Origin: a virus
Lineage: Duplodnaviria; Caudoviricetes
Direction: 5' to 3' (one strand)
Virus record (IMG/VR): IMGVR_UViG_3300010376_000117
Coordinates: 1 to 26,481 of that record
DNA length: 26,481 bases
Shown here: positions 159 through 25,804 of the stretch, in pieces
Layout of the letters: each line of letters begins with the position of its first letter
Numbering within the stretch: position 1 is the stretch's first letter
The notes under the pieces: generated by a model
Told to the model about the DNA's origin: nothing
The model's database searches: none
What the model saw: the letters and a program-made list of their open reading frames with translations, nothing else
Position numbers and translations under genes: made by a program

Positions 159-2261
159 CTAGGCGTTTGCCAGTGCGTCGGCTGCCGACAGCGGCTGGCT
201 CTGTTGGGAGAAGTAATAACTCAAGGGATCGCCCTCATAGCCATAGATGGGCTGCTGCAGCGTTTGCAAAACGGGAGTGGTCGGTAGTGGAGTTGCGCTG
301 GCCGTAACGCTCCCAGGAGGCGGGGCTGGAAGAGCATCGGAACCAAGGTTGCCTCCCCCTCCGTCCCCATGCGGTGCGCCGCCTTTATCTCCATCCAAGG
401 TACCGTCGAGCCCGGTGCTGTCCGGACTCACGTCTACGCCAGTCAGATTCGGGCTTAATCCGCCAAGGCCAATCTCTTCTGGCTTGGTGAGTGGCGACGG
501 TTCAGGAGATGGCCGGAATGGGTCCGGCTGCGGAGTTGGAGGTTCTGGCGCCGGCTGCGGCGGGGGCTGCTGTTGATCAAAGGTCTGGGAGGGAAAGAAA
601 TCAGGGTTAACCGTCATCCCGAACGGATAATCCATCACCCCCTGCATTCCGGTGTGGGTTTGATTCAGCACACTGGGATTTGCCAGAGGCTCGAAGCCCG
701 GCAGACCGGCCTGATTGATACCGGGAGGAAGGCCAGGAAAGTCGGCTTGCTGATCCAGTTGATTGTACTGAGACTGCCCGGTGCCAGAAACACCATAGGG
801 TAAGGCCACAGTTTGCCCGGTGTAGAACTGATCGGCCGGGACTTGCGTGCCTTCCGGCGCCAGGAGAGGGCCGCTGAACACCGAAGGATCATAGGGCTGA
901 TCGAAGCCCGGAAGTCCGGCCGTCGTGATGTTGCCGGGAGCGGCTTGCGGGCCTTGCGGTGCTGCAGCCTCGAAAAGACTTCCTGGAAGCGTCTCCGTCA
1001 GCTGCCCGAAAAGAGCGGCTTGCTGGTCAGTGCTTGGCGGCTGTCCCGAAATAGGTCCGGTCAAGGCGGTCGGGTCGATTGCCGTGTCAAAACCCGGCAT
1101 AGCCGAGGTATTGATGCCTCCTGGAACGCCAGTGGCGGGGGCTTGGCCTGGAGCTATTTCTCCAGCATTGGCCGGTCCCACGATGGCGTTGCCGATACCG
1201 CTGGCAATATTGCCCAGCGTGCCAAAGATGCTGTTTTGCTGATTGCTGCCCAGCTGGGTCGGGTCAGTGGAGGGAGGATGCCCTGGCATCGGCTCGCCGG
1301 GGACGGGAGACATGAACTCGTCGGGAGAGACGGGGCCACCGTAAGGCGCAAAGGTTGGATCGACGAAGTCGCCGTATCCCTCAAGCGGCGTTCCCTGCAT
1401 AGGTCCCTGATTTTCAGGGAGGCCGGTCATATTGTAGCCGCTGAAGGCAGCTGAGGGCACCGCCCCCGGCATCTGGCTCTGCGCTTGCGCCTGTTGCGCT
1501 TGTTGAAATGAGGGGTCAAAGGCGCTCTCAAGCGCTCCAGCGACCGGAGTGGAGCCAGAGAGTATTTCCTGGGCGGAAGTTACGCCACCAGGAAGCCCCG
1601 CCGCTGCAGCCGCGGCCGCCGGGGACGGAGAGGCAACCGCGTTTTCCAGCGCGGTCTGCGCATCAGAAGAGAGGGATGGCCCAGCTGGCGGTCCAGGAGT
1701 CTGGTCTCCAGCGGCAGGTCCAGGAGTCTGGTCTCCAGCGGCAGGCCCAGGAGTCTGGTCCCCGGCGGAAGGTCCAGGAGCCTGATCCCCGCCAGGGGCT
1801 TGGTCCCCGCCAGGGGCTTGGTCCCCGCCAGGGGCTTGGTCACCGCCAGGGGCTTGGTCCCCGCCAGGAGCCTGATCCCCGCCAGGGGCTTGGTCCCCGC
1901 CAGGGGCTTGGTCCCCGCCAGGAGCTTGGTCACCGGACCGGTCTCCGGTTTGATCCCCGCCCGGAGGTCCGCCATCGGTCGGCCCGCCGTCGAACGATCC
2001 GCCATCGGTCGGTCCGTCATCGGTTGCGCCGCCGCCCCCGCCGAAATTTTCATTTCCTCCGCCGCGGCCGTCCGTGCTGCCGTCAGTTGCTCCCCCGCCG
2101 TCTCGACTCTGGCTGCCGCCATCGTCATCGGTCGTCCCACCATCATCGTCCGCGGCGCGTCCACCGCCATCATCGTCGCCACCGCCTCCGCCGTCGTCAT
2201 CATCGCCCGAGCAGACGATAAAGCGGCCGTAATCCCACCACTCATCGTTAAGCCACTTCAT
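159..2261 (-). CDS. 700-aa acidic Gly/Pro/Asp/Gln-rich repetitive protein, probably disordered; putative internal virion protein
   Basis: Long ORF whose start overlaps the GNAT gene end. It contains GDQAPG tandem repeats and recurring LPGFD motifs. The function is inferred only from position. Confidence 0.7.
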   Translation of the reverse strand: MKWLNDEWWDYGRFIVCSGDDDDGGGGGDDDGGGRAADDDGGTTDDDGGSQSRDGGGATDGSTDGRGGGNENFGGGGGATDDGPTDGGSFDGGPTDGGPPGGDQTGDRSGDQAPGGDQAPGGDQAPGGDQAPGGDQAPGGDQAPGGDQAPGGDQAPGGDQAPGPSAGDQTPGPAAGDQTPGPAAGDQTPGPPAGPSLSSDAQTALENAVASPSPAAAAAAAGLPGGVTSAQEILSGSTPVAGALESAFDPSFQQAQQAQAQSQMPGAVPSAAFSGYNMTGLPENQGPMQGTPLEGYGDFVDPTFAPYGGPVSPDEFMSPVPGEPMPGHPPSTDPTQLGSNQQNSIFGTLGNIASGIGNAIVGPANAGEIAPGQAPATGVPGGINTSAMPGFDTAIDPTALTGPISGQPPSTDQQAALFGQLTETLPGSLFEAAAPQGPQAAPGNITTAGLPGFDQPYDPSVFSGPLLAPEGTQVPADQFYTGQTVALPYGVSGTGQSQYNQLDQQADFPGLPPGINQAGLPGFEPLANPSVLNQTHTGMQGVMDYPFGMTVNPDFFPSQTFDQQQPPPQPAPEPPTPQPDPFRPSPEPSPLTKPEEIGLGGLSPNLTGVDVSPDSTGLDGTLDGDKGGAPHGDGGGGNLGSDALPAPPPGSVTASATPLPTTPVLQTLQQPIYGYEGDPLSYYFSQQSQPLSAADALANA
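1690..1935. repeat. Coding tandem repeats: 3 x 27 nt (1690-1770) and 9 x 18 nt (1774-1935)
   Basis: The 18-nt unit ccaggRgcYtgRtcMccg encodes GDQAPG on the minus strand. The 27-nt unit ggtccaggagtctggtctccagcggca encodes AAGDQTPGP. Confidence 0.95.
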
Positions 2262-2733
2262 GGGTCAGGTCCTTGAGGTAGACGAGATCGCACAGGCTGT
2301 AGCCCATGCTCTCGAAAATGTGCCCGTGGTTGTGGCCCGCCTTACAGCGCATGGTCATCACGCGCGCGCCCATGTTGAAGGCTGCGGCTTCTGCAAACTT
2401 GATCATTTCCTTGCCTACACCCAGGCTTCGGTAGGCCGGCGCCAGATAATGAAGGTCGTCCACCGCAATCTTGACACCGCGGTAGTGCGGGTGCGGCCGA
2501 ATCACCATGGCAGCATAGCCGACAACTTCGTTGTCCTGATTGCGGGCGATCACCAGCACAAGCTCGCCGGCCGCCTGCCATTTGCGATACTGATCCCAGT
2601 CCGGGTCCAGCTTGAGAGCGGCCTTCAGCGGAGCCAGTTCTTCGTAGTGGGCGGTAAACATGGCTTTCGGAACGTTGCAGGAGGTAACCGATTCCAGCGA
2701 GAATCGGACGTGATGGTCGGACGCCTTTGTCAT
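2248..2733 (-). CDS. GNAT-family N-acetyltransferase (virion module)
   Basis: Acetyl-CoA motif A-like HYLAPAYRSLGVGKEMI, a VVGYA strand and C-terminal FESMGY. Start placed at ATG 2733, which gives an ATGA overlap with the upstream stop. Confidence 0.85.
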   Translation of the reverse strand: MTKASDHHVRFSLESVTSCNVPKAMFTAHYEELAPLKAALKLDPDWDQYRKWQAAGELVLVIARNQDNEVVGYAAMVIRPHPHYRGVKIAVDDLHYLAPAYRSLGVGKEMIKFAEAAAFNMGARVMTMRCKAGHNHGHIFESMGYSLCDLVYLKDLTHEVA

Positions 2734-3083
2734 GATGTGATCCCTAAAGCCGACCGGAGAAGCGAATGCTCGTCGGCGTGACTGTCCATCCAGGTGTACC
2801 ATTGGTCTTCCTGGGTCAAGTCAACATCCGCGAGATCGATCCCGCTGACGCCGGTTCGTAGCCGCAGCTGCTGGTGGGTCGCCTGATGCGACTCCAGCCA
2901 AGCGACCTGGATAGGTTTCTCGTCGCCCCAGAGCGCAAAGTTATAATCGGGAATGAAAACCGGCGGCGTGAAGGTCTGGAAGATACCGACGAATTGCTTG
3001 TGCTCAAGGAAGTGCTCCTGTAGCCAGATCGAGAAGCCGGCAGGGTCTTTCGGCATTACGATATCGTGGAAGAAGATCGGCAT
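2730..3083 (-). CDS. Hypothetical protein, 117 aa, His/Trp-rich
   Basis: Coupled to both neighbours. Repeated W-x3-H-x2/3-H motifs (WLQEHFLEH, WLESHQATH, WMDSHADEH). Confidence 0.8.
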   Translation of the reverse strand: MPIFFHDIVMPKDPAGFSIWLQEHFLEHKQFVGIFQTFTPPVFIPDYNFALWGDEKPIQVAWLESHQATHQQLRLRTGVSGIDLADVDLTQEDQWYTWMDSHADEHSLLRSALGITS

Positions 3084-4853
3084 TCATTGGCTCATCTTGG
3101 AGGCAAATACCTTGCTCTCCTGGTACTCGGCCGCCAGACCGTTGATTACCAGACCGACCGAGCCTGCGGCGGTCGAGCCGGAAAAAGCCCCGCTGAGAGT
3201 AATCCCCAGGTAGATGCCAGTCGCAGCTGCTTGGCTGCGCTGGTAGAGAAATCCGCTGGTCAGCCAGTTGAAGATGTTGCCGCTCTGGTCCAGCCACTGC
3301 ACGGTCTTGCCGGCATTGTTAATCCACTGGAAATTGATGCCGGTGGAAAACGGGAACAGAGTTCCGCCGTTCTCGCTCTCGGTCAGCAAATTCATGGTTC
3401 CGACGTTGCTGGAACCAAGTGACACCGAGCACTGTATCATGCGCTTGCCGATGTCAGTGCCGTTGTCGGCAAGCGCCGTCTGCAGCAGGATATTGACCGG
3501 CGTCGAACTTTGAAAAATCTGCGTGACGTCCGTCCCCGAACTGGCAAACGTCTCGGTCAGCCCGTTGATAGAGGCCGTGCAGATCGAGGTAAGGTTGTCG
3601 CCTTGGCTGGCGACGAACCAGCGGTTTTTGGTGAAGCAGAGAATAAGCGAGCGCTGCACGCCGCGCGCCGGGTCGTTGTAGCGGCACAGCAGCAGGAAGG
3701 TGTGCAGCGAACTGTGCAAATCCTGCACCGCCGCCTGCAGCGGCTGCGAGAAGTCCATCTTGGAGAAGATGCCGTCCATCTGATCGGACACCTTTTCCAC
3801 CGAGGCGCCGAGCACGGCATAGACGCCCACCTTGTTGCCGAACAGAATAAGGCGGTTGTAGGAGGCCACCGCGCGCGGGAATGGCATTCCCTGGTCGGAT
3901 GACAGCGTGACAATCGAAAAGTTGGTCGAGCTGCCCGACACCGTGATCGTACCGATCTGCTTGATCGATGCGTCTCCGCCAATATAGAGAAAGTTATTCA
4001 GCGCCCTGAGGACCGTGATCTGGTGGACCAAGTCGGCATCGTTGAGCGTTGTCGAACCCGCCGCATTTGCTGTGGCCGCATCGTCAAAGCCTTTCGTGCC
4101 CGTCCATTGGAGAAGTCTTCCGGCCGCAAGCCAGACCCGCCCGGAGTAAATGGCGAGAGTTGTGACCGCTCCGCCGACAAAAGGCCAAACATTAACCGTT
4201 GCAGTAGCTGACCCGCTGCCGAAGGTGACAGTGACGGTGTCGGAAGCGAGGTAGCCGAAGCCTGCTGTGTCGAGAACGACCGAAGTAACGACTCCTCCGG
4301 TGAGTACTGCGTGCGCTGTGGCGCCGGCACCAGAACCGCCGGAAAAGGATACGGTAGGAGCAGTGACATAGCCGGAACCTCCGTTGGTGACGACGATGTT
4401 GGGAGAAAGCCCACCCTGCTGAACGAACGCCACGCCGTCCCAGGTGCAATAGCCGGCAATCGGATCAGCAATGAGAATACGTTGCGAACTCCAGACCGTC
4501 ATGTCCGGCTGCGCCGAGAAGGTGCCCTTGGCAGCAAACTGAAAAACCGCCCCCGACGCTACGTCCACCTGATAGCCGGCCCCAGAGGCCGTAAAGTTGA
4601 TGATGAAGTCCTTGTTGGCATAGTTGGCGAAGAACTGCGCCGTGATATTGTCGCTGTTTATGGTTGCCAGCGTGGGGGCAGGACCCTCGCAGCACACCAG
4701 CTGGTTAGGGCCGACGATCTCCAGGTTTTCGCACCAAGCAAGCCGGGTAGGGTCTAGCGCCTCGCGCGCCGACTGGGTGTCCATGGTCTGAAAACCACGG
4801 AAGCGGATGTACTGCTTGGTAGATAGCTGGACCTGCGTTAGATTGCTGGGCAT
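3084..4853 (-). CDS. Putative tail nozzle / head-closure protein (P22 gp10/T7 gp12-like position) with inserted GSGY beta-module
   Basis: 589 aa and rich in beta-strand patterns (YSGRVWLA, LNNFLYIGG, YNRLILFG), as in propeller proteins. Lies directly after the adaptor-like gene. Insert TNGGSGYVTAPTVSFSGGSGAGATAHA. Confidence 0.65.
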   Translation of the reverse strand: MPSNLTQVQLSTKQYIRFRGFQTMDTQSAREALDPTRLAWCENLEIVGPNQLVCCEGPAPTLATINSDNITAQFFANYANKDFIINFTASGAGYQVDVASGAVFQFAAKGTFSAQPDMTVWSSQRILIADPIAGYCTWDGVAFVQQGGLSPNIVVTNGGSGYVTAPTVSFSGGSGAGATAHAVLTGGVVTSVVLDTAGFGYLASDTVTVTFGSGSATATVNVWPFVGGAVTTLAIYSGRVWLAAGRLLQWTGTKGFDDAATANAAGSTTLNDADLVHQITVLRALNNFLYIGGDASIKQIGTITVSGSSTNFSIVTLSSDQGMPFPRAVASYNRLILFGNKVGVYAVLGASVEKVSDQMDGIFSKMDFSQPLQAAVQDLHSSLHTFLLLCRYNDPARGVQRSLILCFTKNRWFVASQGDNLTSICTASINGLTETFASSGTDVTQIFQSSTPVNILLQTALADNGTDIGKRMIQCSVSLGSSNVGTMNLLTESENGGTLFPFSTGINFQWINNAGKTVQWLDQSGNIFNWLTSGFLYQRSQAAATGIYLGITLSGAFSGSTAAGSVGLVINGLAAEYQESKVFASKMSQ

Positions 4854-5740
4854 CAGAAGCCTCTTTGCAATCTACGCCATACGTTCTGATAGATGTTTGG
4901 AATTCTGGTGGTCTGTCGCGTCAGTTGGATTTCCTGCTGACGGGCCTTGTATTTTTTGTGCATGTACTCGGCTTGATCGAAGTTCTGCAGCTTGAGCAGG
5001 GCAAGATGGGCGGCGTAAAACTGTACACAATCCGCCATCGGATCAAGAATCTGCGTGTCCACATCTGCAACATGCACCAGGGGGCTGGGCGTGATCACGC
5101 CGTCGATCTCGATCGGATAGTTCTGATCAGGCTCCGGAGGGTAAAGGTAGAACAGGTTCTGTTCGGTGTAGTTTGACCAGCTGGCAGGCTGCCCAGCGCT
5201 CAAGCTCACATTGTTGCGCCAGATGGCCTGATGATAGGTGAACGGGTGCCAGAGCAGCATGGCGCGCTGAATGCCGTTGATCACCGAGATCGACTGAAAG
5301 TCCATCACATTGAGCATGGCAACGGCGGTCGCGGTCGCCGTGGAGACGCCGGCCGAGAAGGTCACGTTGGGCACCGAGCTGTAGCCGGCGCCCCATCTGG
5401 TCATGGCGATGCCGGTGACGGCGGTTCCGGTCATGACGGCCGTGGCCGTGGCCGTGATGCCGCCGGCAGGAGCCGCATCGAAGGTCACGGTCGGGGGCGC
5501 TGACGGGTAATTCCCGCCGCTCGTGATGATGGCGCCACCTACCCCGTTGGACATCGGGTAGGTTTCCTGACCCTGCACGACCTGCAATCCGACGAAGAGT
5601 TGACGCACGCAATGAAAGTCAATCCCAACACGCTTGCGCGCGTTGTTGACGTAGTTCGTCATCTCATTGGTGGTGTAGTCAATCGCCGAGACGTCGTGGA
5701 CCAGTTCTTGGACCTGGGTAATGTAATCGGAGAGTTGCAT
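4853..5740 (-). CDS. Putative head-tail adaptor protein with inserted GSGY beta-module
   Basis: N-terminal helix pair MQLSDYITQVQELVHD..EMTNYVNNA, central GQP...LYPPEPDQNY motif, and C-terminal helices CVQFYAAHLALLKLQNFDQAE. This pattern is typical of podovirus adaptors. Confidence 0.7.
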   Translation of the reverse strand: MQLSDYITQVQELVHDVSAIDYTTNEMTNYVNNARKRVGIDFHCVRQLFVGLQVVQGQETYPMSNGVGGAIITSGGNYPSAPPTVTFDAAPAGGITATATAVMTGTAVTGIAMTRWGAGYSSVPNVTFSAGVSTATATAVAMLNVMDFQSISVINGIQRAMLLWHPFTYHQAIWRNNVSLSAGQPASWSNYTEQNLFYLYPPEPDQNYPIEIDGVITPSPLVHVADVDTQILDPMADCVQFYAAHLALLKLQNFDQAEYMHKKYKARQQEIQLTRQTTRIPNIYQNVWRRLQRGF

Positions 5741-7453: not shown

Positions 7454-8461
7454 TCAAATGTTCAGGAAGCTCAAGTTGTCGAACTTCCCATGTGCCTTGC
7501 ACTTGACGTCCACCATTTCGAGAAGCGTCAGCAGTGCGCCGATATAGCCAAACTGGCCGTTGGCCAGCGTGCTCTCGAACCCGGTGAAATAGAAGCTGGC
7601 GCGCTCGTGGACGTAAAGCGACAGATAGTCGGTATTGAGAAGATAGAGCGTTCCCTCCGGGCAGTAGGTGTCCGGGTAGAATGGCACGCCCGCGATATCT
7701 AGCGCCGAGAACAGCGCCTCGACCTTGCCGTCGGAGAAGCTGGACGATGGAGTTACGTTGTAGCGCTCGTTCGACGTGAAATCCTGCGCCAACTGGGTCC
7801 AGGTGCCGAAGCCCATCAGACCCATCTTTGGCTTCTCGCCGGTCACCTTGGTAACCTGCGAGATGTACTGCAGCATCAGGTTCCGGGTCGGGGTGGTGGC
7901 GCCGCCGTTATGAACGTAGGTGGACTTCCAGAACGTGTTGCTGGAGCGGTTGATGCCGCCGTAGGTCGCCGCAAACGTGCCGTCATCGACCGCCGCCGGC
8001 AGCCCGATCATCGACTGGGTGTTGGCAACGTTGTTGTAGAGATCGGTGGAGAAGCGATCGAGCGTAACGTTGGTCGCGTCGTTCATGCGCGCTTCGATCA
8101 GAGGAACTATCGAGTAGTCGAGTTGGACAAGGCCCTCCATTCCCAGGAAGGGAATGGCGGTAAGATAGCCCTTGAGGTTGAACTCGGCGTTCTGCAGCCC
8201 CGGAGTGACGCCAGGCTGATCAAACGAGCCGTCGTAGCCGACGTTCTCGATCGTCACCATGGGGTTGCCCTGCAATGGCACCGTGATCGGGGACAAGCCG
8301 CCAGAGGCCACCTGCGCATGGGACAGCAGCGCCGCCATCATCGGCGTTGACTTCCACAGCTGGATGAACACCTTCGGCAGGAAGGCGCGGCGGGTGACGG
8401 CGGCTAGCTCGGCGGCGATCGCACCTTGAGCCGGGATAATACCTTGTCCAAATTGAGGCAC
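7454..8461 (-). CDS. Major capsid protein (HK97 fold, inferred)
   Basis: 335 aa, downstream of a scaffold-like gene. Capsid-like motifs include QLWKSTPMMAALL, IGLPAAVDDG..TYGGINRS, IAGVPFYPDTYCPEGTLYLLNT and a terminal HGKFDNL. Confidence 0.85.
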   Translation of the reverse strand: MPQFGQGIIPAQGAIAAELAAVTRRAFLPKVFIQLWKSTPMMAALLSHAQVASGGLSPITVPLQGNPMVTIENVGYDGSFDQPGVTPGLQNAEFNLKGYLTAIPFLGMEGLVQLDYSIVPLIEARMNDATNVTLDRFSTDLYNNVANTQSMIGLPAAVDDGTFAATYGGINRSSNTFWKSTYVHNGGATTPTRNLMLQYISQVTKVTGEKPKMGLMGFGTWTQLAQDFTSNERYNVTPSSSFSDGKVEALFSALDIAGVPFYPDTYCPEGTLYLLNTDYLSLYVHERASFYFTGFESTLANGQFGYIGALLTLLEMVDVKCKAHGKFDNLSFLNI

Positions 8462-10478: not shown

Positions 10479-10676
10479 CTAGTTCCCCGGAACTATGGGC
10501 GGCACGATGCCGAACTCAAACGCTTGGTCGTTGCGCAGAACTGACAGCTCTTGCTGTTGCGCGTCCGCTGCCTGCGCCTGAAGCAGGTTGGAGATCACCC
10601 GCAGCTCTATCGCCGACAGCGTCTCGACCGGAAATCCGTTGGCTACAGCCGGACCACCGCTGACGAAGGTCGTCAT
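10479..10676 (-). CDS. Hypothetical protein, 65 aa
   Basis: ATGA overlap with the upstream gene; its stop abuts the downstream start. Confidence 0.7.
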   Translation of the reverse strand: MTTFVSGGPAVANGFPVETLSAIELRVISNLLQAQAADAQQQELSVLRNDQAFEFGIVPPIVPGN

Positions 10677-11092
10677 CCGCCGCCCCCCAGGTTCATCGGA
10701 GATGGACCACCAGGCGAGAGGCCCGGAGGCGGACCCATCTGGGCCATCGGACCCTTCGGCTGCGACGCCGCCATCATCGATTTCATGGCGCTGGGCACCA
10801 TGTTGTCGTTAGATTCCTTGCCGAACAGCGGCGCCAAGGCCCGGATCGCGTTGAGCACTGCCTGATACTGCTTGTCGCCCACCTGATAGACGTTGAGCGC
10901 GTCGTGCAGCGCCGGCAGAATGGCCTTGATCTTGGCGGCAGCGGCCGCCTGATTGCCCGATCCGTCCCCCGGAGCAAGCGCCGGGGACCCTCCAGGCCCC
11001 GCAGGGCCGCCCGCCGGGTTTCTCGGCAGCATCGGACGCGGCGGCATCTGGCCGCCGGAAGTCATTTGCGGGGGAACAAAAGGAGGTGCCAT
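10673..11092 (-). CDS. Hypothetical Pro/Gly/Met-rich protein with a central helical hairpin (139 aa)
   Basis: Start placed at ATG 11092. Core KIKAILPALHDAL...AVLNAIRALAPLFG is flanked by low-complexity arms. Confidence 0.75.
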   Translation of the reverse strand: MAPPFVPPQMTSGGQMPPRPMLPRNPAGGPAGPGGSPALAPGDGSGNQAAAAAKIKAILPALHDALNVYQVGDKQYQAVLNAIRALAPLFGKESNDNMVPSAMKSMMAASQPKGPMAQMGPPPGLSPGGPSPMNLGGGG

Positions 11093-11098
11093 CGCAGC

Positions 11099-11128
11099 GG
11101 GATAAGTCTCGCCAGCGGAAGGCGTCAA
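11099..11128 (-). promoter_or_regulatory. Candidate sigma70-type promoter for a possibly leaderless transcript
   Basis: TTGACG-N18-TATCCC lies just downstream of the terminator and ends 6 nt before ATG 11092, which has no SD. Confidence 0.4.
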
Positions 11129-11139
11129 ACCCAGGTCAG

Positions 11140-11160
11140 AAAAAGGCCCCCGAGGGGGCC
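11140..11160 (-). terminator. Intrinsic terminator
   Basis: GGCCCC-CTCG-GGGGCC-TTTTT on the minus strand. Confidence 0.85.
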
Positions 11161-11203
11161 AGTTTGGAACGACAGGAAGGAAATGCGTATGCAGTTCTTG
11201 GTA

Positions 11204-11245
11204 CTATCGCCGGCCGCGCCGGCCGCGACGATGACGCCGAGCCAT
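11204..11245 (-). CDS. 13-aa Arg-rich micropeptide MARRHRRGRRGRR
   Basis: Below the ORF-track cutoff. SD GGAGG (11251-11255) lies 5 nt before the ATG, 8 of 13 residues are Arg, and a TAG stop is followed by the terminator. Confidence 0.75.
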   Translation of the reverse strand: MARRHRRGRRGRR

Positions 11246-11483
11246 GATTGCCTCCAGGTTGCCCGTATTCTTTCGAATCGGGTGGGTTGAGCAATGATTC
11301 CTGCGTATCCGCGCGGCTCCCCTGGAGCAAATCCAGGTCAAAAGCTGATGTGAGGGACGACAGCCTTGGACGCTTGCAATGAAGCGGGCGGAGAAGCGAG
11401 AAGCCGCCCAGACGGCAAGTCAACGCAGGCTGTCTTTCTGACCGCCGATCCCCTCACTGACCGACGAAAGGCGACTTGCCGCC
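11246..11483 (-). ncRNA. Candidate structured RNA (unclassified) between the portal and micropeptide genes
   Basis: Several hand-found helices, including two crossing (pseudoknot-like) 7-bp pairings and a GAAA-capped hairpin. G-U pairs work only on the minus strand. See findings. Confidence 0.55.
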
Positions 11484-11506
11484 GTTCGAACTGCACATGA
11501 TTCGCA

Positions 11507-13225
11507 TCAGGCTGCCTTCCGCGCGTGGGCAGGCTTGGGTTGCTCTCCGCTCATCGCCTGCTGCTGCTTGAGAGCCGCTTCCGCCTTCACCCTCTCCCGC
11601 AGCGCGTGGATGATGGCGTCGGCATTGGGCGGATCGAGCATCCGCACCAGCATTTCGCGGTCGATGGCCTCGGCCTTGAACAATCCGGCCGCCTGCTCCT
11701 TGGCCTCATCCTGGAACAGCGGCGAGTGCGAGTGGCCAGCGACCGAAATCCGCAGGTTGGTTTCGGAAACGAGCGCCGGAACCAGCGTCTCGCCCGACTT
11801 GGTGGTGAACCGGTGATCCGAGTTCTTCTGCAGGAGCTTGATCGAGATGTCCGCCAGCTTGACCAGGGACGGCTCCAGCGCCACGGCGATCTTGCGGATA
11901 CGCCCGGAGCCGGTCAGCGCCAGCCGCTTGGCGTGCTTCTCTCCACGAACTCCCTGTTCCCCCTGTCCCATCACGGTCTCGGTAAGTCCGGACGCATCCA
12001 GGAAGATGTGACCGATCTCATTAAACTCGGTGAACAGGTTTTCCGGCATCTGCGGCGACAGCTGGTCGATCTTGGCGCCCGGAATCTGGTCGAGCACCCA
12101 GGCGCCGGGACCGCGCAGCGCGTTCATCTTCTCGTCCGCCAGCCCGGAGAAGCCGGAACCCACCAGCGGCGGGTCCACCTGCTTCTCCAGCATGTCGGAA
12201 ATCTGCTGCAGCCGCTCGTTGGTCCACACCTGCAGCTGAATCAGATTGTCGCAATGGGACTCGCCCCAGAAGAAATTATAGAGGCTGTATGGACGAACCT
12301 GGATGAACGGGTGTTCGCCGGGAAGGAAGATGTTCGACTTGCCCTCATAGCGGTGCCGGTTGGCCTCATCCGCCTCCGCCATGGCCGCGACCGTCTCCCG
12401 GCTGTCGGAGAGGCACCCGGTCACGCCGTCCATCATGGTAAAGAAGGCATAGTCCTCCGCGATGTCGTCCCACACCACGATCTCGTGGCAGCGCACCATC
12501 GGGTTGTCGGACTTGGACTCGTAGGTCGCGCGCGGCTCGTAATCGACCGAAGCCCGCCCGGTCATGGCGCCAGCGATGTTGGGGCCGCCGGTCGAGTTGA
12601 TCAGCAGGTTGGCCAGGATCGGCGGCATCTCGTCGGACTCGTTGCCCGGACGCGCCACCAGACTGTCAATCTGATCCTTCATTCCTGCTCGGAGCAGTCG
12701 AAGGACAGCATTATCCCAGTTGAGACTGTAAGAATGGACAAACGCTTCTTGCGAGTCGAGATCGGGTTCAGATTCGTCGTAGACAGAAAAATCCTGCGGA
12801 GCAAAGACGGTCCCAGTGAGGCAGTTGCGAGTGTCGTTCCACCCGATCTTGATGAACATTGAATCGAACACCAGAGACCAGAGGATGGCCTCGGAGAACT
12901 GATAAGCCAGTCCGGTGTCTTTGAAAAAGTCGTTCCATTCATCCTGCAGCCCCGTTGCCTGATCTACCGCGGAAGTATCGGCGTTGCGAGAAGCCGCCAC
13001 AGAAAATCGGCAATGATCCGGCGCATAGAGAAAGGACGATACCAGATCGAGATGTGATTTGAGCCTGTTATATTTGACCTCGACTCCGTAATCGGAAGTT
13101 CCAAATAGAAAGTACCGTTTCCGACGCAGATAGAGTGCGTCACGGTCTCCCCGTGACGCGAGACATGTGTCTTTGATCTGCTGAATCTTCTCATCCCGGT
13201 CAGCCGGGTCGCGCGGAATTATCAC
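11507..13225 (-). CDS. Portal protein
   Basis: About 572 aa from GTG 13225 (MIIPRDP). It lies between terminase and scaffold/capsid genes and shows portal-like segments YNRLKSHLD, HPFIQV..FFWGES, LEKQVDPP and ASGLTETVMGQGEQGVR. Confidence 0.85.
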   Translation of the reverse strand: MIIPRDPADRDEKIQQIKDTCLASRGDRDALYLRRKRYFLFGTSDYGVEVKYNRLKSHLDLVSSFLYAPDHCRFSVAASRNADTSAVDQATGLQDEWNDFFKDTGLAYQFSEAILWSLVFDSMFIKIGWNDTRNCLTGTVFAPQDFSVYDESEPDLDSQEAFVHSYSLNWDNAVLRLLRAGMKDQIDSLVARPGNESDEMPPILANLLINSTGGPNIAGAMTGRASVDYEPRATYESKSDNPMVRCHEIVVWDDIAEDYAFFTMMDGVTGCLSDSRETVAAMAEADEANRHRYEGKSNIFLPGEHPFIQVRPYSLYNFFWGESHCDNLIQLQVWTNERLQQISDMLEKQVDPPLVGSGFSGLADEKMNALRGPGAWVLDQIPGAKIDQLSPQMPENLFTEFNEIGHIFLDASGLTETVMGQGEQGVRGEKHAKRLALTGSGRIRKIAVALEPSLVKLADISIKLLQKNSDHRFTTKSGETLVPALVSETNLRISVAGHSHSPLFQDEAKEQAAGLFKAEAIDREMLVRMLDPPNADAIIHALRERVKAEAALKQQQAMSGEQPKPAHARKAA

Positions 13226-13526
13226 GTTGATACCCTGTTGCTGGCCGAACCGCACGTGGCTTGCGTACAATCTTGTAGCCGCTGTAATAGCCCCCGATGA
13301 TGCGGATGCCGGCGTCGGCGTCGGCAAACATATCGTTGATTTGATAGATATGGGCTCTGATGCACACCTGGGTGACGCCAAAGTGCTTTGCCAGCTTCGT
13401 GCTGGTCTGCATTGAGCCGTGCCTGATCTTGTCGTAGATTTCCGCCTTCTTCGGCGTCAGAAAGACGCCCTCACGCCGGAACTTCAAGGGTTGGTTGCAG
13501 TGCGGGCATCGCTCCTGATTCGACAT
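13200..13526 (-). CDS. Putative DNA-binding protein (CPHC knuckle + helix-turn-helix)
   Basis: From ATG 13526: CPHCNQP, then LTPKKAEIYDKI..STKLAKHFGVTQVCIRAHIYQIN (HTH-like) and a GYKIV wing. Confidence 0.65.
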   Translation of the reverse strand: MSNQERCPHCNQPLKFRREGVFLTPKKAEIYDKIRHGSMQTSTKLAKHFGVTQVCIRAHIYQINDMFADADAGIRIIGGYYSGYKIVRKPRAVRPATGYQRDNSARPG

Positions 13527-14342: not shown

Positions 14343-14677
14343 CCCAGTGCCTTGCATGTGGGGCAATAGCTGCGCCACGGTTCGATGCGCCACCCGATCT
14401 TGGCAAACTCCTCGATCACGTCGTTGGTGACGTCCTTTTCCTTGCGCCGCTTGGCTACCGCAATGGCCGCCGGGTCGCCCATGCAGATGGCGCCGAACGG
14501 GACATGCACCACATCGCTGTCGCAGCGGCATCGAAAGCAGCGTGTCCGCATCGGGACGATCTGCTGAATCCACCGATTGTCCTTGTAGTCGTTGATGTCG
14601 GCCAGCTCATCCAGCCGACGTCTGGACATATCGTAGGCGTTGTACACTTCCTCTTGGCTGATCTTCTGTTCTTTCAT
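14339..14677 (-). CDS. Hypothetical zinc-binding protein (112 aa)
   Basis: ATG 14677 overlaps the terminase stop. Contains CFRC and CPTC pairs. Confidence 0.7.
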   Translation of the reverse strand: MKEQKISQEEVYNAYDMSRRRLDELADINDYKDNRWIQQIVPMRTRCFRCRCDSDVVHVPFGAICMGDPAAIAVAKRRKEKDVTNDVIEEFAKIGWRIEPWRSYCPTCKALG

Positions 14678-16482
14678 GGCTTCGCCTCCGTAATGATGCC
14701 CTGCTGATGCAGGTAGTTGAGCGCGATCGCCTGCACCTGGGACGGCTTGCCGTGCAATGCCTCCTCCGCCAGGGCGGCAAAAGAAATCCCCATGCCGCGC
14801 ATCTTCGGCTGCAGCCAGCGGCGCCACGCCTCATGCGCCAGCGCCGCCGCAATCACCCGGTCGTCCTTCTTCTTGCCCTCGCCCTCGATGATCCCGCCAT
14901 CGATGATGATGTGCTTCATCTCCTCCAGCAGCGGCATCGAATTGAGGATGAAGCGGCGCAACTCGAATGAATCCTTAAGTCCGGCCATCATCGGCGGTTT
15001 GTTGGAGGGCGAGGTGCGCCACTGATAGGCCAGACCGCCGCCGGCAACGGCGTCCTCGCGCCGGTACAAAAAATGCTGCATGTACATGAGCACGTTGCGC
15101 AGGTCGGCATTGCTGCCAGGCTGGATGATCGAATTGTCGGTCTTCAGCCGGTTCATCTCGTTGAAGACGGCGCCGCCAGGACCGTTGATTTCAAGATTGA
15201 CCTGAACTCGTTTGTAGTATCCAGCCAAGTGACAGAGTACCCAGGCGCATTGATAAGTCGAGAAAGAGGAAGATACAAATTCGGCCACCTGCACCAGCCG
15301 GTCGCTGAAACAGCGGGCGACGTGGATGACGGTGCGGTCGGCGTTCTCGGATGATCCGTAGGCCGGGTCGCAGCCGATGACGTAGTGTCCGGCGGGGTCG
15401 GCCTCTTCCCAGACTTTGAGTTCTCCACGTCGATCCCTCGTTTGCAGGCACTGCGTCTCGTGCCACTTGTCCGACATCAGATATTTGAACGGCATGTAAG
15501 CCTGCTGGCGCGCGCGCCGCATGGCATCGGTCAGCGTCTCATTGGTGAAGAAGTTGGCGCCGGTGGCGACGAAGGCATCCTCCTCAACCCATGGGAAATT
15601 CTCGTCCATCTTTGCCTGGTCGTCGCCCTGGTCGCCGGCCATCTTCCAGCGGTACCAGGCAATCTGATTGTGGGTTACCTCAATTCCGTATCGTTCGAGC
15701 ACGAGTTTCTTGCGCTTGCGTTCGAGTACATCGAGCCGCGTGTCATGGCCTTCAGGCATGAATTGAAGGAAGCGAGGGTCATCGTCGGCAAAAGTATAAT
15801 GGTCGTGCCGCCACCATCCGACGAAGATGCAATGTATGGACGCGTCATTCTTGGCGGCTTCCCACTTCTCGGACCAGAAGTTGAATCCATTGGCGGTAGT
15901 CTCCTCGACATAGAGACGGTGCGGGTGATGGGTGGACATGGTGGCACCGAGCTCCAGCAGATCGTCGGGCGATCCCCAGAACGACACCTCGGTGGCGTGC
16001 ACGAAGTTGTTGGCTCCGGATCGTCCGAGACCGCCCTTGGCCTTGTCCTTGATGCCGGCAACCAGATATTGAATGATCGATCCGTTCTTGAGGATCAGCA
16101 TGTCGCGGTTCTCGGCCCGCTGCGGTATCTTGAACCCCTTCGGCAGATTGGCGAACAGAACGCCGATCACGTTGCGAAACAGCTGCTTCGACATCTCGGT
16201 GTGAGTGGCGAACGAACCGGAGATGCCCTTGTACTCCATCGCCCAGAACAGATCGAGCACCACGAAGAAGGTGGTGGACCCGAGCTGGCGCGCTTTGAGG
16301 ATCATGATCTTGGCAATGCCGGCCGCGCGCGCCTTGCAAATCTCGTCCAGGATGTAGGTCTGGGTGCCGAGCAGCTCCATCGGGACCAGACCAAAGTCCT
16401 TGGTCTGAATCCGCACGCGCTTGCAGAACGCCTCAAAGCGCTCGCGCGGAAACGGGGTCAGCTGGCCGATGGGGGCGGACAT
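14674..16482 (-). CDS. terL: Terminase large subunit
   Basis: Walker A ILKARQLGSTT, Walker B variant FVHATEV, coupling motif ETTANG, nuclease motifs VIGCDPAYG, LEING and DDRVIA. Confidence 0.95.
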   Translation of the reverse strand: MSAPIGQLTPFPRERFEAFCKRVRIQTKDFGLVPMELLGTQTYILDEICKARAAGIAKIMILKARQLGSTTFFVVLDLFWAMEYKGISGSFATHTEMSKQLFRNVIGVLFANLPKGFKIPQRAENRDMLILKNGSIIQYLVAGIKDKAKGGLGRSGANNFVHATEVSFWGSPDDLLELGATMSTHHPHRLYVEETTANGFNFWSEKWEAAKNDASIHCIFVGWWRHDHYTFADDDPRFLQFMPEGHDTRLDVLERKRKKLVLERYGIEVTHNQIAWYRWKMAGDQGDDQAKMDENFPWVEEDAFVATGANFFTNETLTDAMRRARQQAYMPFKYLMSDKWHETQCLQTRDRRGELKVWEEADPAGHYVIGCDPAYGSSENADRTVIHVARCFSDRLVQVAEFVSSSFSTYQCAWVLCHLAGYYKRVQVNLEINGPGGAVFNEMNRLKTDNSIIQPGSNADLRNVLMYMQHFLYRREDAVAGGGLAYQWRTSPSNKPPMMAGLKDSFELRRFILNSMPLLEEMKHIIIDGGIIEGEGKKKDDRVIAAALAHEAWRRWLQPKMRGMGISFAALAEEALHGKPSQVQAIALNYLHQQGIITEAKP

Positions 16483-25575: not shown

Positions 25576-25747
25576 GCGTCGAATGAACGACAACCGGGTG
25601 GTATCCAGCCGCCGGCGATCGACCTACGTGTTTGCGGCGGACTGTGGATGCCGTAGGACAATGGCCTTTTTCCCAATGGAGGTTCCTCCCTCCATTGAGG
25701 ATACCTGCAAGCATGAGGAACCGAGTAGTGAAACGCGCTCTAAGTGA
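25559..25747 (+). CDS. Hypothetical protein, 62 aa
   Basis: SD AGGAG (25549-25553) before ATG 25559. MTFTFERRMNDN...CGC...CKH. Confidence 0.6.
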   Translation: MTFTFERRMNDNRVVSSRRRSTYVFAADCGCRRTMAFFPMEVPPSIEDTCKHEEPSSETRSK

Positions 25748-25791
25748 GCGCGTCTGCATGGGTGGCCACCATGCACTGATGATCAGGCCAC
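25728..25791 (+). ncRNA. Hammerhead ribozyme, type II with pseudoknot
   Basis: GAAA (25730-25733), stem III CGCGCUC-UAAGU-GAGCGCG, GUC site (cut after 25754), stem I UGCAUGG-GUGGCCA-CCAUGCA and core CUGAUGA. Stem II is minimal. Loop GUGGCC pairs with the 3' tail GGCCAC (25786-25791). Confidence 0.8.
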
Positions 25792-25804
25792 AGGAGACTC
25801 TCAA

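Follow-up and report, generated by a model that had tools for sequence, protein, structure and literature searches.

Protein J of the Microviridae (phiX174) is a highly basic protein of about 20–38 amino acids (aa), encoded among the morphogenesis genes, which enters the capsid with the genome and neutralises charge. The adenovirus polypeptide Mu is about 19 aa long and has an Arg/His-rich composition. The tiny basic ribosomal proteins (eL41, bTHX and the mycobacterial bS22/bL37) are Arg/Lys-rich, RNA-binding peptides of 24–33 aa encoded by free-standing genes. The N proteins of lambda and P22 are larger, about 100 aa, with NusA- and RNA polymerase-binding regions, and the loop of the boxB hairpin is conserved and GNRA-like. 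In leader-peptide attenuators (trpL, hisL), a mini open reading frame (ORF) with a run of one codon type is followed by an intrinsic terminator. The adenovirus core contains Mu, together with proteins VII and V, as a basic peptide described as bound to the packaged dsDNA genome (PMC4189039). The locus examined here lies on the minus strand of the IMG/VR virus record IMGVR_UViG_3300010376_000117 (26,481 bases, below called the window), between the portal gene and the next gene of the structural operon, and comprises a micro-gene for a 13-aa polyarginine peptide with its flanking signals. The closest functional counterparts of its product would be the small basic peptides that accompany the genomes of other viruses, to which it is not homologous. 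The reading that we favour, with a probability of about 45%, is that the conserved element is a minus-strand micro-gene cassette, the 13-residue polyarginine product of which would be a trans-acting, nucleic-acid-binding polycation in head assembly or DNA packaging.

The micro-gene (MARRHRRGRRGRR, 13 aa, net charge +8) occupies positions 11204–11245, stop codon included, and is preceded by a Shine-Dalgarno (SD) sequence, GGAGG, at 11251–11255, 5 nt 5′ of the AUG. Its upstream neighbour is the portal gene (11507–13225, 572 aa) and its conserved downstream partner is a gene for a 139-aa protein (10673–11092), referred to as the next gene; both are on the minus strand. The gap between them is 414 nt, occurs once in the record, and is the largest within the structural operon, as an earlier note on this DNA had pointed out. 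The RNA pairings, the 13-aa ORF and the terminator that the note had listed in the gap are all present where it placed them.

Of the candidates scored, 197 are portal homologues at E ≤ 0.001, the closest apart from the portal itself being 70% identical. Relatives were fetched with a 40-sequence portal alignment, giving 51 IMG/VR loci and two contigs from metagenome-assembled genomes (MAGs); 48 of the fetched loci hold both the portal and the next gene, and yield 36 distinct gap sequences, that of the window included. A larger set of about 115 related loci was collected later. When the gap of the window was compared by blastn with the 36 distinct gaps, the sole match was 11269–11205, which covers the SD sequence and the small ORF. 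All 36 distinct portal-downstream gaps contain an ORF of the form MARR(R)(R)HRRGRR(R). Thirty of these were recovered by a simple first scan, and six were added later, namely four that overlap the 3′ end of the portal gene in another frame, each with its own SD sequence (L042, L051, L052 and L053), and two that have ATA at the start position. In the latter two (L009:4588–4623 and L024:5338–5376) the SD sequence and the remainder of the ORF are intact, and DNA is inserted upstream in both; the ATA is either a non-canonical start or the mark of a copy inactivated recently.

The micro-ORF has 35 distinct nucleotide versions among the portal relatives, and 11 nucleotide versions encode the identical peptide MARRRRHRRGRR, with repeated synonymous exchanges between CGN and AGR codons. 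Pairwise differences within equal-length classes amount to 938, 529 and 2188 at codon positions 1, 2 and 3, respectively, and the codon differences are divided into 1736 synonymous and 775 nonsynonymous changes. An SD core (GGAG, GAGG or AGGA, at −16 to −4) precedes 52 of 52 micro-ORF copies, and in 44 the 5-mer AGGAG or GGAGG is found. As in a protein-coding gene, the SD spacing, the start, the frame and the stop are kept, and there is an excess of third-position and synonymous changes. Judged from these patterns, the micro-ORF is very probably a real peptide gene, and one that is under purifying selection at the peptide level.

The encoded peptides are of extreme composition. There are 29 distinct sequences, 10–16 aa in length and with net charges of +6 to +12. 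Apart from an I at each of the two ATA starts, they are built solely from M, A, R, K, H, G and S, with no hydrophobic or acidic residue. Low-GC relatives have Lys in place of Arg and, since R to K exchange (in either direction) is the only substitution tolerated, charge appears to be the conserved property. The His and Gly positions (HRRG) are invariant.

A degenerate pattern of the ORF, run against IMG/VR, returned 60 stretches, of which 47 are such micro-ORFs and 13 are chance matches or longer ORFs. Sixteen of the 47 represent new loci, and all but one of these (15/16) are flanked by homologues of the portal and of the major capsid protein (MCP), with identities down to 23.6–29% for the portal and of 36–88% for the MCP. 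As the peptide persists where portal identity is this low, its conservation exceeds that of the portal. Despite an inverted portal in L094, the micro-ORF there still lies upstream of the MCP gene, from which it is separated by a weak (27%) match to the next gene; the micro-ORF therefore belongs with the downstream head genes and not with the portal.

Some phages have the micro-ORF in two to four tandem copies, with three in L046 (the middle one begins MP, not MA) and two each in L047 and L048. Chained Arg-rich mini-ORFs of 16–34 aa adjoin a family-type micro-ORF in L073 (about 2415–2585, reverse strand), L093 (downstream of 2536) and L094 (downstream of 2545). The micro-ORF of L094 has a 24-aa Arg-rich neighbour beside it, whereas around that of L073 neither a portal nor an MCP homologue lies within 2.5 kb.

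In GenBank, related records are limited to two metagenome-assembled spring phages, MW202753 and MW202825 (54% identity for the MCP, 32% for the portal). In each, the interval from portal to capsid genes contains a pair of 13-aa K/R-rich ORFs that are preceded by strong SD sequences and are missing from the annotation (L116, MW202753.1, 4758–4799 and 4878–4919; L117, MW202825.1, reverse strand). The annotation of MW202753 over these ORFs consists of opposite-strand hypothetical coding sequences (4740–4877 and 4874–5038), which are probably spurious. Among bulk metagenome contigs, three of 120 examined pattern stretches were of the family type and the remainder were chance matches in high-GC DNA; because chance matches predominate, an estimate of about 1200 metagenome stretches says nothing on abundance. 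As for fused forms, a homologue search with the next gene gave 11 matches, and no protein alignment had an Arg-rich N-terminal extension, although no search aimed at longer or shorter forms was made. Full-text literature searches yielded no description of such a phage peptide and no paper with the strings RRHRRGRR, RHRRGRRR or RKHRRGRR.

The micro-gene is accompanied by conserved signals on both sides. On the 5′ side, a hairpin, CCCGAUUC-GAAA-GAAUACGGG (11262–11282, minus strand), ends 17 nt before the AUG; it is seen in minimum free energy (MFE) folds and has counterparts in the relatives, a short hairpin ending at −22 to −17 being found in 40 of 48 distinct relatives. The stems are highly diverse (CCCG/CGGG, CCGG/CCGG, CCAGC/GCUGG, CUGG/CCAG, UUGUCC/GGACAA and GGCCC/GGGCC) and are longer in a distant clade, and the loops, of 5–19 nt, are unrelated in sequence. 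The segment from −52 to −14 has a mean fold z of −1.25, against −0.29 to −0.37 for three upstream control windows. For the ribosome-binding site (RBS) window the mean is +0.25, so that the RBS appears to be kept open, and the stretch between the hairpin and the SD sequence is CA-rich and unstructured. A covariance model was built from ten well-aligned loci. In the alignment fitted to it, 69 of 69 cells are paired, three of the four pairs show double changes, and the covariation score was reached by none of 500 shuffles. By this analysis, the hairpin 5′ of the RBS is conserved by structure, its pairing being maintained through compensatory changes.

On the 3′ side, a predicted intrinsic terminator, GGCCCCCUCGGGGGCC followed by UUUUUCU (11138–11160, minus strand), has a stem-loop at 11160–11145, with six G-C pairs and a 4-nt loop, and a U-tract at 11144–11138. 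Under a strict test, 34 of 50 loci have a terminator-like hairpin and T-run after the last micro-ORF, with stem sequences that vary by locus; in another six, a GC hairpin precedes a weaker T-run. The distant clade includes seven loci that retain both hairpin and peptide and have no terminator; in these the next ORF starts 4–75 nt after the stop. The earlier note had recognised a module after the portal gene with an Arg-rich peptide, the hairpin CCCGAUUC-GAAA-GAAUACGGG and a terminator, and all three are conserved in the relatives.

A promoter-like motif is found on each side of the cassette. The first copy, TTTTGACCTGGATTTG (11328–11343, minus strand), lies about 98 nt upstream of the micro-ORF start and is a direct repeat of 11126–11141. 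The second, TTCTGACCTGGGTTTG (11141–11126), is part of an extended element on the same strand (11099–11141) with TTGACG at 11128–11123, an 18-nt spacer and TATCCC at 11104–11099. Many loci share this placement, with a locus-specific motif about 80–110 nt upstream of the micro-ORF that recurs just after the terminator. The repeats often hold a TTGAC-like hexamer and are individually significant (p ≤ 0.05) in 10 of 50 loci, and a looser promoter-like site is present upstream of the micro-ORF in 12 of 52 copies. Tentatively, the repeated motifs represent the same promoter in duplicate, and the cassette would then be a unit of its own; in the clade of the window it is likely that transcription of about 170 nt runs from the upstream promoter-like repeat to the cassette's own terminator. 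The ATG of the next gene is 6 nt after TATCCC. More generally, this ATG stands 6–10 nt after a −10-like element, with no SD sequence, in the window (11092–11128, minus strand) and at equivalent sites in L051, L077, L046 and L047, which suggests a leaderless or near-leaderless mRNA for the first gene of the head operon.

The case for a trans-acting polycation is built on several of these features together: charge is kept through R and K exchange, hydrophobic and acidic residues are absent, the gene is amplified in tandem, and it persists with or without a terminator. The fixed place of the gene before the Pro/Gly-rich next gene and the capsid genes suggests that its product takes part in head assembly or neutralises packaged DNA. 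The cassette runs from a short hairpin through an unstructured CA-rich stretch, a strong SD sequence and the 13-codon ORF to an intrinsic terminator; in the proposed mechanism, the hairpin and open RBS would give high, constitutive translation. Removal of Met would leave the peptide ARRHRRGRRGRR, with a charge of about +8, which would bind DNA or RNA non-specifically and would most likely serve as a counter-ion for packaged DNA or for acidic assembly partners. A counter-ion role in the head or on its DNA, which is read from composition and gene neighbourhood only, is put forward tentatively. The narrower proposal of a free 'phage protamine' is rather doubtful; here the peptide, 9–15 residues after Met removal and arginine almost throughout, would be the bulk product of a ~170-nt mRNA (with its own promoter copy, hairpin and terminator), and would be co-packaged as a counter-ion or would discharge an acidic assembly partner.

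Among the described proteins, J of phiX174 resembles the micro-gene product as a small, highly basic phage protein encoded in a morphogenesis-gene setting. It differs in that J belongs to a ssDNA phage and has a hydrophobic C-terminal coat anchor, whereas the peptides here have no hydrophobic residue and are encoded by dsDNA genomes of the SU10/P22-like podophage type. Adenovirus Mu shares with the peptide its very small size, Arg/His-rich basic composition and origin in a dsDNA virus, but Mu is cut by a protease from a precursor in a eukaryotic, non-tailed virus, whereas the phage peptide would be the direct product of a 13-codon gene of a tailed phage and has no homology to Mu. The small ribosomal proteins are likened to it by description only; they are parts of cellular ribosomes, and nothing links the phage peptide to ribosomes.

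Several results weigh against the favoured reading, either in its regulatory parts or as a whole. MAFFT and RNAalifold, applied to 26 upstream regions, recovered none of the pairs of the hairpin because MAFFT misaligned its arms, and per-sequence folds and the covariance model were therefore used; the covariance-model alignment, itself fitted to the structure, places the hairpin in only about 17–20 of 47 rows. A sigma-70 scan of 10600–11900 found no promoter-like site, for which reason the promoter assignment stays tentative, and the looser pattern TTGAnn-16–19-TAnnnn follows the terminator in only 10 of 50 loci. No such ORF lies between the portal and MCP genes of two cultured, distant MCP relatives, Myxococcus phage Mx8 and Bradyrhizobium phage ppBjS10J-1. 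A pure counter-ion role would not account for the invariant His and Gly (HRRG), which may hint at a specific partner. Lastly, to our knowledge a genome of T=7 size (about 40–45 kb) would not obviously require an additional condensing agent, and we know of no route by which the peptide would enter the capsid.

An invariant His and Gly would also be consistent with a defined binding site on a host target, such as the ribosome or rRNA, the nucleoid, polyphosphate or membranes, through which the peptide would favour late phage expression or lysis. The extreme charge, the small size and the strong expression signals fit this explanation, and both tiny basic ribosomal proteins and Arg-rich antimicrobial peptides exist. 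It is nevertheless improbable, given that the micro-gene keeps a constant position among the head genes, immediately before the Pro/Gly-rich one, and does so even in the locus with an inverted portal. The conserved order of parts has been read in two other ways. The earlier note had suggested antitermination of the lambda N/boxB kind, which the locus resembles in having an Arg-rich sequence (N-terminal in N), a nearby RNA hairpin and a downstream terminator. As the ligand of an arginine-rich motif (ARM) interaction, the peptide would bind its own pre-RBS hairpin or another phage RNA, and would autoregulate translation or aid terminator read-through into the scaffold and capsid genes. Its composition does resemble known ARMs, and the clade of the window retains hairpin, ARM-like peptide and terminator jointly and in this order. 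However, the peptide is the entire protein in all relatives, at 10–16 aa, leaving nothing for contact with NusA or RNA polymerase. Loops (5–19 nt), sequences and stems of the hairpin vary while the peptide is nearly invariant, and the seven distant loci keep hairpin and peptide without a terminator. Read-through would not be needed, since a promoter-like motif follows the terminator, and the upstream regions compared showed no shared boxA-like motif. The locus lacks both features by which lambda N/boxB systems were recognised here, the larger ARM protein and the boxB hairpin with a conserved loop, and the chance that the peptide acts as such an RNA ligand is slight.

The other way is to regard the micro-ORF as a cis-acting leader or upstream ORF, in which translation of the Arg codons, or stalling by the polybasic nascent chain, would set termination or translation of the next gene, the peptide itself being functionless. 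An ORF with 6–12 Arg codons and a terminator within about 45 nt, as found in the clade of the window, would suit such a role, and in the distant clade the 4–75 nt from the stop to the next start would permit coupling. The locus departs from trpL and hisL in lacking an antiterminator alternative: in the MFE and centroid folds of 11305–11130 there is no pairing with the arms of the terminator, only the terminator and independent local hairpins. The whole peptide is kept, His and Gly included, and not just its Arg codons, and the change from Arg to Lys in low-GC relatives, which is tolerated, would alter the amino acid sensed. The same peptide is found with and without the terminator, tandem copies and arrays exist, and the genes downstream are head genes rather than genes of arginine metabolism. 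A cis-acting leader is, on this evidence, quite improbable.

A further alternative shifts the function from the peptide to the spacer between the portal stop and the cassette (11344–11506, minus strand), in which the earlier note had seen a 'pseudoknot-like structured RNA' (11483–11344). The helices exist. A 12-bp helix (11483–11472 with 11422–11411) has 10 Watson-Crick and two G-U pairs with a perfect 9-nt core, GUGAGGG (11457–11451) pairs with CCCUCAC (11356–11350) and GACAGCC (11434–11428) with GGCUGUC (11365–11359), and the local MFE fold uses the 12-bp helix. Such helices are within the range of shuffled sequence, however: among 300 dinucleotide shuffles, 54 had a helix of at least 12 bp (G-U allowed), 32 had a Watson-Crick helix of at least 9 bp, and 25 had at least four Watson-Crick helices of at least 7 bp. 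The region 11290–11506 has a fold energy of −86.4 kcal/mol, compared with −80.5 on average for shuffles (z −1.25), and 22 of 200 shuffles were as good, so the fold is not more stable than shuffled controls. The preference for the minus strand that had been proposed holds in direction (the plus strand has z −0.53), but its size is small; for the whole gap, the fold z is about −2 on both strands.

Nor is the spacer conserved. Searches by blastn and tblastx gave no significant match to it in the ~115 related loci, and the portal stop is 77–136 nt from the micro-ORF in basal relatives, compared to 261 nt in the window, so the segment is absent there. At gathering thresholds Rfam had no match in the gap, and at E ≤ 10 nothing rose above noise (10900–11700). 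An analogue of the phi29 pRNA, which had been offered as one possibility, finds no support, as there is no structured RNA of ~120–170 nt matching the Rfam model and no homologue in the relatives; a riboswitch or ribozyme, also offered, has no covariance-model match, no conservation and only the fold z given above. Some relatives have a small hairpin after the portal stop, a weak feature with a mean z of −0.73 over 33 distinct loci. A functional structured RNA at 11344–11506, whether pRNA-like, a riboswitch or ribozyme, a terminator without a U-tract or a 3′ stabiliser of the portal message, is thus largely refuted and has a very remote chance of being correct. The structure is specific to the window, and the spacer is probably a non-functional remnant or the 3′ untranslated region of the portal mRNA.

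In the relatives, both sides of the micro-ORF form an insertion hot spot, and the spacing between portal stop and next-gene match varies from 228 to 2672 nt across the 48 fetched loci with both genes. Inserted there are HNH_3/AP2 homing-endonuclease-type genes on the opposite strand (L007:4937–5455; L009:3935–4480 and 4696–5217; all minus), a TylF-like methyltransferase (L045:5693–6451), an Amidase_3 gene (L044:1598–2137), and large ORFs of 633–676 aa with no Pfam match (L003:3239–5140; L020:5088–7118). The extra 165 nt between the portal stop and the cassette of the window would be an unconserved spacer at this hot spot, and may be a scar of insertion traffic. Alternatively, 11516–11328 could be a decayed tandem duplicate of the micro-ORF cassette, with no Arg-rich ORF and no terminator. 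Three colinear repeats would fit a duplication, GGCAGCCTGATGCGAATCATG and GGCAACCTGGAGGCAATCATG (D1), CTGTCGTCCC and CTGTCGTTCC (D5), and TTTTGACCTGGATTTG and TTCTGACCTGGGTTTG (D2), as would the intact tandem copies carried by relatives. On the other side, the first repeat overlaps the 3′ end of the portal coding region, the 14-aa ORF at the corresponding position is without Arg, and D2 may be merely a repeated promoter motif. The local alignment score to the cassette was reached in 5 of 300 shuffles under permissive settings and in 14 of 300 under strict ones; with a colinear resemblance as weak as this, a decayed tandem copy is therefore possible but unproven, and we consider it unlikely.

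The favoured reading, in which the peptide acts within the head module, is set in a window from an uncultured soil phage, with an estimated completeness of 59% and with its structural genes on the minus strand. These include the large terminase (14674–16482; phrog_2, E 7e-11) and the MCP (7454–8461; phrog_9953, E 7e-29, with a weak match to SU10_MCP). Homologues of the portal match SU10_portal (31.6 bits, cut-off 30) and, near threshold, P22_portal, and the protein is annotated as portal in the GenBank relatives; a profile of portal homologues had no match among PDB sequences. The 139-aa product of the next gene is Pro/Gly-rich with a central helical core, and was followed in the relatives by tblastn and protein alignment; it has no Pfam or PHROG match. 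A blastn search with 10600–13400 had no match among the INPHARED phages, and a tRNA/tmRNA search found none. Of the sequencing runs listed for the locus, none is of RNA and one is of DNA, which may be the source of the record. A GNAT acetyltransferase gene (2248–2802, minus strand; Acetyltransf_1, E 1e-10; phrog_1249) is located among the tail and virion structural genes. A match to the type II hammerhead ribozyme (25726–25792, plus strand) lies far from the micro-gene, where both strands contain ORFs; it covers the full model, 1–66, with 43 bits against an Rfam gathering threshold of 37 (E 7.7e-6).

Two phage-genome-sized contigs of this phage group, L054 (42.6 kb) and L055 (40.1 kb), were deposited in MAGs labelled Acidobacteriaceae and Pseudolabrys, respectively. 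The portal-gap sequence of L055 is identical to that of L049, a 40.1-kb IMG/VR contig. The MAG labels are not reliable host calls and are weak hints at best.

The analysis removes a false lead, as the eye-catching 'pseudoknot' is an unconserved spacer at an insertion hot spot, and directs attention to a 13-codon polyarginine gene that is missed by gene callers, by libraries of the Pfam/PHROG type and by tryptic proteomics. In a large group of uncultured soil and freshwater phages, this micro-gene is better conserved than the portal and occupies a constant position in the head module. Should its product target RNA or the host instead, it would be among the shortest functional phage proteins known. 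As a 'phage protamine', it would be encoded by the smallest conserved gene of a tailed-phage head module, invisible to standard annotation and tryptic proteomics. If it is a packaged counter-ion, it would provide a simple, synthesisable reagent for charge neutralisation in packaging, and as a packaged counter-ion or an assembly cofactor it would represent a new kind of tailed-phage head component.

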